Below are positions 16,878 to 36,695 of a stretch of DNA of 64,000 nucleotides, piece after piece. The notes under the pieces were generated by a model. It saw only the letters and a list, made by a program, of their open reading frames with translations. It was not told where the DNA came from and did not search any database. The position numbers were made by a program, and so were the translations under genes. Position 1 is the stretch's first letter; every line of letters starts with the position of its first letter. This stretch comes from a virus (taxonomy: Duplodnaviria; Heunggongvirae; Uroviricota; Caudoviricetes), in the IMG/VR virus record IMGVR_UViG_3300043399_000371, positions 100,285 to 164,284 of that record; one strand, 5' to 3'.

Positions 16878-17540
16878 TTATTCTTTCTTCTTTTTAATAT
16901 GCACATGAACACCATTAGCAGCAACGCCACTCAATTTTTTAACTTCAACTTCATGTCCATGCCTTCTAGCATAATCTTCAACGTAATCTTTTAATTCGTT
17001 ACCATCAAACCCTTTTTGGTATGATGTTTCTTCACCACCACCTTTTACTTTTCTCTTTACCCAGATAGATTTTGGTTCATCACCGGGAACTGAGTTTTTA
17101 GCAGCATCAATATCACCTTTCCATTTGCGTGTACCAATAATTGCATGACCACCATCTTTAACAGAATTAAAAATGGAATGCATTACGTGTTCGCGCACAT
17201 GAGGCTCAACTACATTCAATACATTATGACAAACAGCAGCGTGATAATGATTGCGTGGTATATCTTCTGATTTTGTATATTCAGGTGGTTCTTTTCTACC
17301 TTCTGGATTTGGCTCCATGTCATGAATTTCGTGAGTATTACCCTCACCAAGACCAGAATGTAAAGCTTTTCTTGTATGATCCAAACCAGCACCAATACTA
17401 ATAATTTTAGAATTTGGTTCTAGTTTATTTTTTAATATACGACCAGTTTTTTCGTAGGTTCCACCAGTAGTTGCTACTTGTGTTCTTCCTGTAGCATTTA
17501 CTCGTTCTTCTTCGAAAATGAATTTTTTGAATGATAACAT
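16878..17540 (-). CDS. capsid-targeting-sequence (CTS)-bearing protein with class-I SAM methyltransferase-like motif; candidate packaged internal protein
   Basis: N-terminus MLSFKKFIFEEE resembles the T4 internal-protein CTS (MKTYQEFIAE; gp21 cleaves after L/I-x-E). KIISIGAGLDHT matches MTase motif I. Confidence 0.5.
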   Translation of the reverse strand: MLSFKKFIFEEERVNATGRTQVATTGGTYEKTGRILKNKLEPNSKIISIGAGLDHTRKALHSGLGEGNTHEIHDMEPNPEGRKEPPEYTKSEDIPRNHYHAAVCHNVLNVVEPHVREHVMHSIFNSVKDGGHAIIGTRKWKGDIDAAKNSVPGDEPKSIWVKRKVKGGGEETSYQKGFDGNELKDYVEDYARRHGHEVEVKKLSGVAANGVHVHIKKKKE

Positions 17541-17577
17541 ATTAACTCCGATTGAATAGATTTAATATTTATCTATA

Positions 17578-17654
17578 TGGGGTGTTCAGTCGGATTCGAA
17601 CCGACAACCATCTGACTCACAATCAGAGACTTTGCCAATTAAGCTATGAACACC
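17578..17654 (-). tRNA. tRNA-His(GTG) with encoded G-1
   Basis: Anticodon stem TCTGA/TCAGA, loop TTGTGAG. 5' GGTGTTC pairs with GAACACC, giving an extra 5' G opposite the discriminator C as in tRNA-His. Confidence 0.75.
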
Positions 17655-17661
17655 ATAATTT

Positions 17662-17739
17662 TGGAGCGGGTAGGGAGATTCGAACTCCTCACTTGAGGTT
17701 TGGAAGACCGCCGTGCTAACCGTTAAACACTATACCCGC
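17662..17739 (-). tRNA. tRNA-Gly(TCC)
   Basis: Acceptor GCGGGTA/TACCCGC, anticodon loop CTTCCAA (one stem mismatch), T-loop TTCGAAT. Confidence 0.6.
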
Positions 17740-17747
17740 TAACTGTT

Positions 17748-33992: not shown

Positions 33993-34478
33993 TCACACCT
34001 CCAAACTCACATCATTCATAACAAACCAAAGAGGTGTATCGCGTCCGGTCCATTTAGCGAAATCCTTCTTTGCACCAATATAATACTTACGATATGCAAC
34101 TACAGGATCAGAGTCTTTATACTCATCCGGCATAGCTTGAGCAAATTCAGTAAGCCCAATGTCTGGAATGGTATCAGGACAGTCAAACTCTGTCAAGAAA
34201 TATTGATCACTTTTATGTTCTCGATTGTACCTATAAGTATACTCATCACACAGAGCAAGACCATGAGCCTTAAGCCACTCATAGTTTTGTTTAGACCTAC
34301 CTGCCCATAGAGTAGATGGATGATTGGCATGAGTAGGTTTATAAGTAGCTGGCTTACCGTGCTTGTGGTTTACAGTAGCAAGAATCTGAGCCGACTCTAA
34401 AAGCATTTTTACTACGTGCTTATCACATAGCATCTGTGCAGCAACAATAGGATCTTGATGTACATGGAAAATATTCAT
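33993..34478 (-). CDS. hypothetical protein (weak resemblance to T4 endoV/DenV N-terminus noted, unconfirmed)
   Basis: 161-aa ORF, MNIFHVHQDPIVAAQMLCDKH... Confidence 0.45.
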   Translation of the reverse strand: MNIFHVHQDPIVAAQMLCDKHVVKMLLESAQILATVNHKHGKPATYKPTHANHPSTLWAGRSKQNYEWLKAHGLALCDEYTYRYNREHKSDQYFLTEFDCPDTIPDIGLTEFAQAMPDEYKDSDPVVAYRKYYIGAKKDFAKWTGRDTPLWFVMNDVSLEV

Positions 34479-34628
34479 AATTAATAACCTTTATCTGAAA
34501 CACGACACCAAGAACTGTACAGGAAAAAAACACCCATGTCAAGAGTTTTATGGGCAAAGATGAAGGTATTGACAGGATGAAGAATTTGGAGTAAGATTCG
34601 TTCCACCTCAACTCAATGGAAATTAATC

Positions 34629-35141
34629 ATGACTGCAATTAATCGAATTCACCGTGAAGACCTGACAGTAGATCAAGTCAGGGAAATGTTTAACTATGAT
34701 CCTGATACTGGATTGCTCACACGAAAAGTAAAAGCAGGAAGGTCTAATGTAGGAGATTTTGCTGGTAGTCTGAAGAAAGACGGTTACTATGAAGTCAAGA
34801 TCAAAGGAAAGTATTACAGGCAACACCGAATCATCTGGCTACACTATTATGGTAAATGGCCCGATCATTTCCTAGATCATATCAATGCTATTCCCACAGA
34901 CAATCGAATTTCTAATCTTCGGGAATGTAGTGACACAACAAATCAATTTAATAAAGGTGTCCATCCTCTTAGTAGACTAGGTGTGAAAAATGTATCTCTA
35001 GTCAAAGGAAAGTATGTCGTTACCTTTAAATTGAACTATAAAAAAATTCATGTTGGTAGGTATGACACACTTGAGGAAGCAGTAGAAGTTGCCCGTAAGT
35101 ATCGTGAAGAACTACACGGAGAATTCGCCCGTCATGAATGA
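34629..35141 (+). CDS. HNH homing endonuclease with AP2 DNA-binding domain
   Basis: HNH_3-like LDHINAIPTDNRISNLR, then an AP2-like GVKNVSLVKGKYVVTF...YDTLEEAVEVARKYREELHGEFA. Plus-strand insert among minus-strand genes. Confidence 0.7.
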   Translation: MTAINRIHREDLTVDQVREMFNYDPDTGLLTRKVKAGRSNVGDFAGSLKKDGYYEVKIKGKYYRQHRIIWLHYYGKWPDHFLDHINAIPTDNRISNLRECSDTTNQFNKGVHPLSRLGVKNVSLVKGKYVVTFKLNYKKIHVGRYDTLEEAVEVARKYREELHGEFARHE

Positions 35142-35277
35142 AATTGTCCAAAAGAGTCAAATCAGGTAAAGTAATAATTACCTCCAGAATCGTTACTGAA
35201 CTTACTCGCAGACTGCAACGAAAAAAACCTAAAGAGTAACAAAAAAGCCAGAGAATCAAACTCTGGCTTTTTTGTTT

Positions 35278-36324
35278 TTAGATTTCTGGGTGATGACTTG
35301 GATTTATATGAGTCGGATGATCATATTCTCCATACTCTTCTAGTTTCTTATGATCTGGATGAACCATAACATGATGTATATGATATTTCTTTAAAATAGC
35401 CTTACCATCATTATACTGTCTATCCAATTGTGAATCTTCTAATTCATCATGGTGTTCTGTACCAAGATAAGTCACTCTAGCCCCATGATGTAGTATAACC
35501 TCATTCTCATCGTATTTGGTATGATGAACTGCGCTAAGACCAGCATCAGGTTTTATATGATATCGAACAATATGATGAACCTGTACATCCTGATCATCAT
35601 TTGCCTCAGGATGCCTTATGCCATTATACTTGTCCTGTTTCCTCTCATTATTAGCATAAAGATCAGAGAAATTACTAGCAACTCTCTTGGATGAAGATGT
35701 GCTTGTAAACCCTGCTAAATGATGATCAGAACCTCTTCCAGAATTCATTAACTTCTCACCAATCTCTCTAGGTACAGCACCCCAAGTTTTTATTGGTTTG
35801 ATATTAGTATTCTCGGGTGTAAATGCAGATGATAAATTCTGTACTGCCCTGTGAGTACGTTTAGGATCATGCATATAGACACCAACACTCTTATTCCCCA
35901 ATTTATTTCTCAAGTAACCATTAATATTAGCAGAGGAAGCATAACCAGCATCAGGATCTTTAGAACCAGTAGATGTATAGTGTAGTATAGATCCCTTATG
36001 AATATCGGATAATCCTTCTGGCTTTACATCTGGGTGATCATGAAAATCCGCATCATACCCAGCACCATATCCATTATTTTTACTATTTCTAGGATATTTG
36101 TATGGATCATTAAACTTCTCATCATCTGGATTATAGTAAGGAGGATCAGCAATAGCTTCCTTGATACTTTTCTTACCTCTAATCTCAGCAAATGAAGAAT
36201 CCCATGAGAGTACATCAGGTTTCTTTTTAACTGGTTCACTCCTAATTTCTGCATGAGACGAATCCCAAGAAAGAATACTAGGTTTCTTTTTCTTTTCTTT
36301 AGTATATTGTTTAAACGATTTCAT
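35278..36324 (-). CDS. CTS-bearing ADP-ribosyltransferase-like protein (Alt/Mod-like R-S-E class); candidate injected effector
   Basis: CTS MKSFKQYTKE. Tandem 17-aa repeat KKKPSILSWDSSHAEIR / KKKPDVLSWDSSFAEIR. ART-like STS motif HLAGFTSTSSS and ExE motif YDENEVIL, with upstream Arg candidates. Confidence 0.55.
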   Translation of the reverse strand: MKSFKQYTKEKKKKPSILSWDSSHAEIRSEPVKKKPDVLSWDSSFAEIRGKKSIKEAIADPPYYNPDDEKFNDPYKYPRNSKNNGYGAGYDADFHDHPDVKPEGLSDIHKGSILHYTSTGSKDPDAGYASSANINGYLRNKLGNKSVGVYMHDPKRTHRAVQNLSSAFTPENTNIKPIKTWGAVPREIGEKLMNSGRGSDHHLAGFTSTSSSKRVASNFSDLYANNERKQDKYNGIRHPEANDDQDVQVHHIVRYHIKPDAGLSAVHHTKYDENEVILHHGARVTYLGTEHHDELEDSQLDRQYNDGKAILKKYHIHHVMVHPDHKKLEEYGEYDHPTHINPSHHPEI

Positions 36325-36695
36325 CTAGGTTCCCTATACATTGTTTCAGATATTCTATAATCTTTATTTCTGCCTTTATTATCAACAAACCCATGCCCCC
36401 TATAAAACTTCCTTAATCGATCAACACTAGAGGCACCAAAGTCTTTAGAAGGACTTAGAGCAATTCTTTTACCATGTTTATCCGCATGATCAGTAATAAG
36501 TTTCATTGCAGCAGATCCCTTACCACCACCACGTTCATTCTTATTAACAACAATCTTAGAGACAGTTAGTGTATTAGATGGTTTATGATGATGTATGTAA
36601 TGATCAACACCAAGACCATCCAATTTACTTTTCAATTCTTCAAAGTCTGTATCATGTTCGGTAGACTCTAAAATGAATGAGATAAAGGATTTCAT
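36321..36695 (-). CDS. CTS-bearing small GNAT-like protein; candidate packaged internal protein
   Basis: CTS MKSFISFILE. GNAT motif-A-like VVNKNERGGGKGSAAMKLI. Confidence 0.4.
   Translation of the reverse strand: MKSFISFILESTEHDTDFEELKSKLDGLGVDHYIHHHKPSNTLTVSKIVVNKNERGGGKGSAAMKLITDHADKHGKRIALSPSKDFGASSVDRLRKFYRGHGFVDNKGRNKDYRISETMYREPR

Follow-up and report, generated by a model that had tools for sequence, protein, structure and literature searches.

The 64,000-nt stretch of viral DNA analysed here (the window; positions 100,285 to 164,284 of IMG/VR virus record IMGVR_UViG_3300043399_000371, Caudoviricetes) carries on its minus strand four open reading frames (ORFs) whose products start with near-identical decapeptides. 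They encode a methyltransferase-like protein (MT220), a His-rich protein with a GP88 core (H588), a protein of the ADP-ribosyltransferase (ART) fold (ART348) and a half-size GNAT-like protein (GNAT124), and all four were present, with the N-termini given in an earlier note on this DNA, exactly at the coordinates collected in Table 1. The decapeptide resembles the capsid-targeting sequence (CTS) of bacteriophage T4, which, with the internal proteins IPI, IPII and IPIII, is reportedly treated by Mullaney and Black (1996). The central idea of the earlier note, that a T4-type CTS sits on unrelated cargo and makes these proteins candidates for packaging and injection, is supported by the comparative tests presented here.

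All four tags begin at the first ATG and follow the pattern M[KL]SF..[FY]. A looser pattern, M..[FYWL]..[FYWL][ILVMT].E, was run over all Met residues in the six-frame ORFs of at least 40 aa in the window and 20 kb of flanking genome (84 kb in total), and matched these four ORFs only. The chance expectation, calculated from amino-acid composition, was 0.08 among 123 ORF starts (Poisson P(>=4) = 1.8e-6), and 5000 rounds of shuffling residues 2-40 gave a mean of 0.07 matches and a maximum of 3. When the first 12 residues were left out, no mutual similarity was found between the proteins (best BLASTP E = 0.36), which belong to differing Pfam families and folds and have one recognisable domain each; the claim that the bodies are otherwise unrelated thus holds. 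The DNA upstream of the four genes was compared and found to be unrelated, and synonymous codons differ among them (in the order MT220, H588, ART348, GNAT124: Ser3 TCA/TCA/TCG/TCC, Phe4 TTC/TTT/TTT/TTT, Glu10 GAA/GAG/GAA/GAG), indicating that the constraint acts on the peptide. On the same two grounds a shared translation-initiation artefact, raised in the earlier note as a possible refuter, was not borne out, and a DNA repeat or recombination cassette was ruled out as the source of the likeness. The L/I-x-E motif said to end each tag is found in MT220 (IFE), H588 (LKE) and GNAT124 (ILE) and is missing from ART348 (TKE); [LI]xE sites in the bodies are few, at 2-3 per protein. His content amounts to 6.8% in MT220, 7.3% in H588, 8.0% in ART348 and 6.5% in GNAT124, against a median of 2.6% for window ORFs of at least 100 aa. 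PDB searches with the single sequences of all four proteins were uninformative.

Table 1. Tagged genes and associated features of the window (all on the minus strand)
Feature	Position	Strand	Remarks
MT220	16878..17540	-	220 aa; tag MLSFKKFIFE; predicted gp21 cut after E10
H588	28137..29903	-	588 aa; tag MLSFKTFLKE; His-rich, GP88 (PF17338) core
ART348	35278..36324	-	348 aa; tag MKSFKQYTKE; C3/Vis-like ADP-ribosyltransferase fold
GNAT124	36321..36695	-	124 aa; tag MKSFISFILE; half-size GNAT-like domain
CTS decapeptide codons, MT220	17511..17540	-	
CTS decapeptide codons, H588	29874..29903	-	
CTS decapeptide codons, ART348	36295..36324	-	T at position 8, as in T4 IPI MKTFKEFT
CTS decapeptide codons, GNAT124	36666..36695	-	
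Two [IV]LSWDSS[HF]AEIR copies	36178..36276	-	ART348 residues 17-28 and 38-49, presumed propeptide
I54-K55-E56 of ART348	36157..36165	-	predicted gp21 site ending a propeptide of ~56 aa
GATAAATA, late-promoter-like	17566..17573	-	ends 25 nt upstream of MT220 ATG; pattern match only
TATAAATA, T4 late-promoter consensus	29936..29943	-	ends 32 nt upstream of H588 ATG
CATAAATA, late-promoter-like	36724..36731	-	ends 28 nt upstream of GNAT124 ATG; pattern match only
ORF237	27392..28105	-	237 aa; directly downstream of H588; own TATAAATA at 28128-28135
denV-like (Pyr_excise) gene	33993..34478	-	downstream of GNAT124-ART348 operon; synteny anchor
HNH/GIY-YIG homing-endonuclease-like ORFs	20959-21612, 22492-22938, 23317-23781	-	between tRNA genes

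In T4 (NC_000866) IPII and IPIII start with MKTYQEFIAE and are cut before the following A, and IPI starts with MKTFKEFTSTTTPVSTITE, likewise cut before the A that follows; IPI begins with MKTFKEFTST and is cut later, at ITE before A, with a propeptide of 19 residues. The window N-termini match those of IPI, IPII and IPIII, and among homologues they grade into MKTYTEFITE and MKTYSQFITE, so that the proposed likeness to the T4 CTS is upheld for the three internal proteins; it does not extend to Alt, whose start (MELITELFDE) is not of the internal-protein type. Encapsidation of IPIII needs only its first 10 residues, of which residues 4 and 7 serve mainly in targeting and residues 8 and 10 in processing (PMC9026906). 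Position 4 is F and position 7 F or Y in all four window tags, and the tag is kept on hundreds of homologues from three of the cargo families, most strongly at these two positions. Further basic proteins with CTS-like starts occur in T-even phages (PMC9026906), and that diverse T-even internal proteins share just the CTS is textbook knowledge (PMC3012670, PMC9026906). The window proteins resemble the T4 internal proteins in carrying the decapeptide M-K-[ST]-[FY]-x-x-[FY]-[IL]-x-E, aromatic at 4 and 7 and, in three of the four, with [IL]-x-E at 8-10, on unrelated proteins, and in lying in a T4-like genome, adjacent to denV or a tRNA cluster and behind late-promoter-like motifs. In contrast, the T4 proteins are small, basic and without known enzymatic activity (IPI* is an inhibitor of GmrSD), whereas those of the window measure 124-588 aa, have enzyme-like folds, are His-rich and often have L-S instead of K-T at positions 2-3.

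ART348 on its own matched the Pfam family ADPrib_exo_Tox at 21.4 bits, below the cut-off of 23.4. Homologues (n=51) mostly carry PF03496, and the family profile matched Vis (E 3.9e-6), HopU1 and ExoT. An AlphaFold2 (AF2) model with a predicted local distance difference test score (pLDDT) of 84.4 retrieved Certhrax, C3cer, Vis, C3bot and VIP2 in Foldseek at E 5e-8 to 1e-6 and a probability of 1.00. The STS and ExE motifs are kept, with S208, T209, E273 and E275 invariant in 50 sequences. The column of the ART-family catalytic Arg, however, holds G in 23 sequences, S in 20, A in 3, N in 2 and T and C in 1 each, never R, and the YRG of HopU1 and the FRG of ExoT align to Y-[GS]-G of the ART348 family. 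Thus, while the fold, STS and ExE of the enzyme described earlier as 'R-S-E-type' were found, the canonical catalytic Arg was not; since the family has G or S at this position, ART348 belongs to the fold and the clade but is not a canonical R-S-E enzyme. It has no detectable homology to T4 Alt (BLASTP best E 1.4), no tblastn match in cultured phages, and no close IMG/VR relative by peptide patterns.

The N-terminus of the ART348 family, in 50 aligned sequences, is conserved at M1 (94%), K2 (82%), F4 (96%, the rest Y), K5 (86%) and Y/F7 (96%), but has I/L/V at position 8 in just 60% and E at position 10 in just 34%. The residues used for targeting in T4 are therefore nearly invariant, and those used for cutting at position 10 are not; the consensus MK[ST]FK[EDQ][YF] shares six of its seven residues with IPI. 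Behind the tag, nearly all 50 members have one or two copies of the motif [ILV]LSWDSS[FH]AE[IV]R. AF2 modelled the helix of the tag and the first SWDSS copy with moderate confidence (pLDDT 70-82), and the linker after them is of low confidence. Within this apparently disordered stretch (residues 34-64) lies I54-K55-E56, with I, L or V in column 54 of all 50 sequences and E in column 56 of 49 of them; this I-x-E56 is most likely the site at which ART348 would be cut by the prohead protease gp21. T4 Alt is a head-packaged, gp21-processed and injected ADP-ribosyltransferase. ART348 is alike as an ART-fold protein of a T4-like phage, predicted to lie in the head and to have a long propeptide and an [IL]xE-type cut site, and unlike in its internal-protein-type CTS, in the G/S at the catalytic Arg position and in its SWDSS repeat region.

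MT220 has 120 database homologues and further homologues at 18 IMG/VR loci, with bodies that are 35-88% identical. Most of them start in a CTS-like manner, as in MKTFSAFISE, MKSFSQFIKE, MLSFKQYIDE and MKTYTEFITE; the tag is in exact register in 72 of the 120, and 59 also have [ILVM]xE at positions 8-10. This [ILVM]-x-E directly precedes the invariant start of the family body, ...RVN(D/N)TRKTQVATTGGTY. The most distant relatives, from a Microcystis phage and an uncultured Caudovirales phage (contigs of ~42 kb), have unrelated Arg/Ala-rich N-termini. Many homologues carry precomputed Pfam matches to Methyltransf_23/12/25; MT220 itself had no Pfam match, a weak PHROG match to a tRNA methyltransferase (E 0.004) and, with the family profile, one weak methyltransferase match in the PDB (E 0.047). 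IISIGAGLD and HDMEP are invariant in the family. We take MT220 to be a putative class-I S-adenosylmethionine-methyltransferase-like protein, the matches of the window protein itself being weak.

H588 had been described as His/Cys-rich, which is right for His (7.3%, see above) but not for Cys, as there are just 4 (0.7%), 3 of which are invariant in the family alignment. Its 409 homologues fall into two classes by length. Those of 575-710 aa, on contigs of up to 165 kb, have CTS-like starts (MLSFKQFITE, MIPFKSFITE, MLKFSTFLTE, MQKFKNFLEE and others), and one of them is flanked by gp44 and gp62 in a T4-like replication module. Those of 720-1020 aa, from non-T4 phages, begin with another conserved module, M.PTLAQMR.AL...NIGVNEAP, and have Gln/Pro-rich linkers; in the sole context examined for this class, the 57-kb phage MW202545, the homologue stands between the large terminase and the portal (L003 8636-11308, MW202545.1). 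Possibly the M.PTLAQMR module too serves in capsid targeting or portal binding, as a second device unrelated to the CTS. Across phage types H588 is 60-83% identical, and in one homologue, P0082, it is fused to ART-PolyVal. A literature search on PF17338/GP88 gave nothing usable on the domain; with its very conserved core and three Cys, H588 may be a metal or Fe-S enzyme. The neighbouring ORF237 has an acidic N-terminal half, an Ala/Lys-rich C-terminal half, and L-T-E and I-Q-E near its N-terminus, but neither a homologue in any library tried nor a Pfam match. It was considered as a fifth member of the set on the strength of its late promoter and L-T-E/I-Q-E, and was left uncertain since it lacks both a CTS and homologues.

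GNAT124 narrowly passed the Pfam cut-off for Acetyltransf_1 (21.5 against 20.7 bits), covering profile positions 55-116 of 116, and contains R-G-G-G-K-G, which fits the acetyl-CoA motif A (R/Q-x-x-G-x-G/A). The term 'GNAT-like' is therefore apt for a domain of half size, corresponding to the C-terminal half only. The protein also matched positions 2693-2797 of the 3925-position profile phrog_10691, and the same domain is found inside giant DarB-like/PLxRFG proteins; the search returned 2820 representatives, and 42 of the top 150 exceed 1000 aa. The closest small homologues start with MKSFKEYIIE, MKSFIDFISE and MKTLNQFITE. Cyanophage B23, a cultured T4-like phage, has a GNAT homologue, gp252, that starts with MKTYSQFITE, next to a 70-aa protein, gp253, that starts with MKTYREFISE. 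Polyvalent proteins, for which packaging has been predicted (Iyer, Burroughs, Anand, de Souza and Aravind 2017; PMC5512222), include a GNAT family that typically neighbours an ART (PMC5512222). The likeness to them is that the GNAT124 domain is a standard polyvalent module, that GNAT and ART are neighbours (in adjacent genes here), and that delivery with the DNA is predicted. Polyvalent proteins, unlike the present ones, bring together 2-15 effector domains in one polypeptide, whereas here single-domain proteins each have their own CTS and the targeting principle is predicted to be that of the T4 scaffold and gp21. In non-T4 phages the same cargo domains have other N-terminal modules or are embedded in polyvalent proteins.

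Tagged proteins were also found in cultured cyanophages. P-SSM4 has annotated genes with CTS-like starts in one cluster (P-SSM4 152192-155116; L034 12192-15116), namely PSSM4_155 (MKKFSAFLKE; a 'cytidyltransferase', T4-GC190), PSSM4_158 (MLSFKAYLAE) and PSSM4_157 (MLSFKSF); in this genome the loose seven- and ten-residue motifs also catch a few sequences that are plainly spurious or do not lie at a gene start. The S-SM1 orthologue of PSSM4_155, SSM1_190 (L035 20257-21420), starts with MKKFSAFLNE followed by A, and T4-GC190 was detected by mass spectrometry in purified S-SM1 virions with 25 peptide counts (Sullivan et al. 2010). Virions of one phage of the same broad lineage thus physically contain an enzyme-like protein that bears the tag. 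The text of Sullivan et al. (2010) does not contain the terms 'internal protein', 'gp21' or 'prohead', and the link to the CTS was apparently not made. T4-GC190, the 'cytidylyltransferase', is like the window proteins in being enzyme-like, in belonging to a T4-like phage, in its start MKKFSAFL[NK]E followed by A, and, as a protein found in virions, in the location predicted for them; it differs in being another cargo family, of which no homologue was seen in the window.

The proteins of the window are identical to those encoded on a 168,163-bp Joint Genome Institute (JGI) metagenome contig, Ga0485233_000013 of 3300047548, which is circularly permuted with respect to the window. The window encodes a gp32 that shares 53-55% identity with its cyanomyovirus counterparts, and the circular contig also encodes T4 gp6, gp25, gp53, gp2, gp26, gp51, gp59 and gp33, DsbA, nrdAB and a DNA ligase; judged by its sequence, the source is a genuine uncultured T4-like phage. 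A nucleotide search of cultured phages with 11 kb gave a tRNA match only, so that there is no close cultured relative. The 10 kb past each end of the window contain baseplate genes and nrd/early genes, and no gp21. The protease is a T4 core gene (PMC2993671), and searches with T4 gp21 and with the gp32 of the window found 2552 and 2474 phage records, respectively, with the same taxon spread, which is read as the two occurring together in about 2500 records. In relatives with a tagged methyltransferase (L009-L012) gp22-gp23 lie ~8 kb upstream; gp21 is present in 64-65 of 80 related gp23 loci, with gp20 and gp21 matches upstream of gp22-gp23, as in P-SSM4, the gp20 matches lying upstream of gp21 in loci that reach far enough. 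The related gp23 proteins keep an L-x-E (LGE, LTE, LVE, LLE or LSE) at the position where T4 gp23 has FLTE before A.

The genes of GNAT124 and ART348 overlap by ATGA and thus form a single operon, with GNAT124 as its first gene. The late-promoter-like motif NATAAATA occurs within 70 nt upstream of 8 of 123 ORFs, including all three transcription units with a CTS gene. The order GNAT124-ART348-(HNH)-denV-like resembles ipIII-ipII-denV of T4, and just as T4 ipI adjoins the tRNA cluster, so do H588 and MT220. In one relative (L005), four contiguous CTS ORFs, for a methyltransferase, a 112-aa protein, a 159-aa protein and an ART, are followed by the same denV-like gene and an RNA ligase; this tandem arrangement indicates that the 'dispersed' family of the window is a broken-up array of internal-protein cassettes. 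Pfam searches with the extra CTS ORFs of relatives gave nothing significant and two sub-threshold matches. A gene-poor 1.5 kb upstream of GNAT124 has ~33-nt repeats with TTGACA-N17-TATnnT in both orientations (36900-37300 and 37560-38260), including a perfect TTGACA/TATAAT on the minus strand (36929-36901).

We therefore favour, with a probability of about 0.75, the reading that the four ORFs encode CTS-tagged, prohead-targeted and gp21-processed internal proteins of a T4-like phage. Each protein would be made late in infection, and its decapeptide (consensus M-[KL]-[ST]-F-x-x-[FY]-[ILT]-x-E), probably as a short helix, would bind the assembling scaffolding core, so that the protein becomes enclosed in the prohead. 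The protease gp21 would then cut off the tag behind E10 in MT220, H588 and GNAT124; for ART348, to which T4 IPI with its 19-residue propeptide offers a parallel, the cut would most likely fall behind I-x-E56. The processed proteins would be kept in the DNA-filled head and delivered to the host along with the genome, where they could act before any phage gene is expressed. That they would form an 'anti-defence or host-modifying arsenal', as the earlier note put it, is something we infer.

Several observations weigh against this reading. For these four proteins, scaffold binding, gp21 cleavage, presence in the virion, injection and an effect on the host are predictions drawn from sequence. ART348 lacks [LI]xE at positions 8-10, as do most of its homologues (present in 12 of 52), and the alternative site at E56 is itself one that we infer; tags are also degenerate, without E10, in many H588 homologues. 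With an ART that lacks its Arg, half a GNAT domain and no assignable chemistry for H588, it is not settled that the word 'enzymes' applies to three of these proteins. None of gp21, gp22 and gp23 was seen in the 84 kb read of this genome, though they should lie in the remaining ~86 kb. The [TCG]ATAAATA motifs, found 25-32 nt ahead of MT220, H588 and the GNAT124-ART348 operon, are pattern matches only; for the operon, the cluster of sigma-70-like promoter repeats upstream of GNAT124 suggests possible early transcription in addition to late. Lastly, the proteomics of S-SM1 concern a different cargo in a different phage, and virions of S-PM2 and Syn9 did not show T4-GC190 (Sullivan et al. 2010).

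Since targeting of the CTS type says just that a protein goes into the core, the tag could direct the four proteins there as components of assembly, or to be degraded and expelled at maturation like T4 gp22, gp67 and gp68, or to act inside the head only, in each case without injection as host-modifying effectors. The T4 core proteins that have gp21 sites are indeed largely destroyed (PMC9026906), the place of non-T4 H588 relatives between terminase and portal is also typical of head-morphogenesis proteins, and the conservation of H588 across phage types is unusually high for an effector in an arms race. Wholesale degradation is nevertheless unlikely given the few [LI]xE sites in the bodies, and no obvious part in assembly suggests itself for the ART, GNAT and methyltransferase domains, which are of a kind typically found in injected or polyvalent effectors; nor is any of the four a T4 core gene. 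We thus consider an assembly role unlikely. A 10-residue amphipathic peptide is low in information, and with tags partly degenerate in many homologues it could be that the shared N-terminus is a signal unrelated to the capsid (for a membrane or compartment, a degron, or the binding site of a phage chaperone) and its likeness to the CTS convergent. This appears distinctly improbable in a T4-like phage whose motif grades into the exact T4 sequence in relatives, whose conserved positions are those needed for targeting in T4, and whose [ILV]xE falls exactly at the junction of tag and body, all the more with a tagged protein present in S-SM1 virions.

There is still less room for the likeness being a feature of nucleotides or translation, such as an initiation region, an mRNA element or the boundary of a recombination cassette, instead of a functional peptide. 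AT-rich 5' coding ends are frequent in phage genes, and DNA coding for the shared CTS was reportedly discussed by Repoila et al. in 1994 as a recombination site for the shuffling of T-even internal-protein genes; against this stand the unrelated upstream regions and differing codons noted above, the occurrence of the tag on just 4 of ~123 ORFs, and conservation at the amino-acid level across homologues with bodies that are 35-80% identical. As the starts were assigned mechanically, chance likeness or mis-called starts might also be suspected, but even with the loose motif P is ~1e-6, the JGI contig has independent gene calls that agree on the starts, and homologues start at the same Met, which leaves this explanation with hardly any credit.

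Other features of the phage were recorded alongside. The window contains 24 tRNA genes in several clusters (16509-30304, minus strand), among which lie HNH/GIY-YIG homing-endonuclease-like ORFs and two of the CTS genes. Between tRNA genes there is also a 478-aa DUF2828/DUF7788 protein (17748-19184, minus strand) with a weak vWA match, which matches PHROG 850, 'RNA-binding protein', at E 5e-142. A tmRNA (9867-10237, minus strand) scored best as the betaproteobacterial type (RF01850, 138 bits; tag ANDERFALAA), which hints at a betaproteobacterial and not a cyanobacterial host. A block of ~10 kb (38000-48000) made up of short ORFs on the minus strand, in which the G+C content rises from ~0.35 to 0.42-0.51, may have been horizontally acquired; among its ORFs are a Metallophos gene (43155-44006) and one with a weak likeness to DSPc phosphatases. 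Called genes of the source contig match the Pfam families Gad2 (PF26128; 56488-57054, minus strand) and Tad3 (PF25185; L023 8136-8618, just past the end of the window), both named after known anti-defence proteins, and lie near a Rap1a-like ORF and a faint Lar-like ORF; the phage thus also has conventional, non-packaged candidates for counter-defence.

The principle of the CTS has been known since the 1990s; what is new here is the cargo, the phage lineage, and domains that alternate between the tag, another N-terminal module and fusion into a polyvalent protein. The system is thereby extended far from the T-even coliphages into abundant environmental T4-like phages, with cargo that is enzyme-like rather than made up of small basic inhibitors. 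The finding also joins the hitherto separate literature on CTS and internal proteins, which deals with single tagged proteins, to that on polyvalent proteins, in which the same domains are fused, with GP88, GNAT and methyltransferase domains switching targeting modules according to the type of phage head. A tentative generalisation, which we would put at somewhat less than even odds, is that the CTS serves as a general, freely transferable address label in cyanophage-related and freshwater T4-like phages, by which polyvalent or portal-proximal effector domains are packaged singly and injected. If this is true, the proteins injected by thousands of uncultured T4-like phages could be listed by a simple search for the N-terminal motif. 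In practice the tag offers a cheap, sequence-only predictor of virion-delivered proteins, and it appears to explain the 'cytidylyltransferase' in S-SM1 particles; the tagged proteins themselves become candidates for early host takeover or counter-defence.

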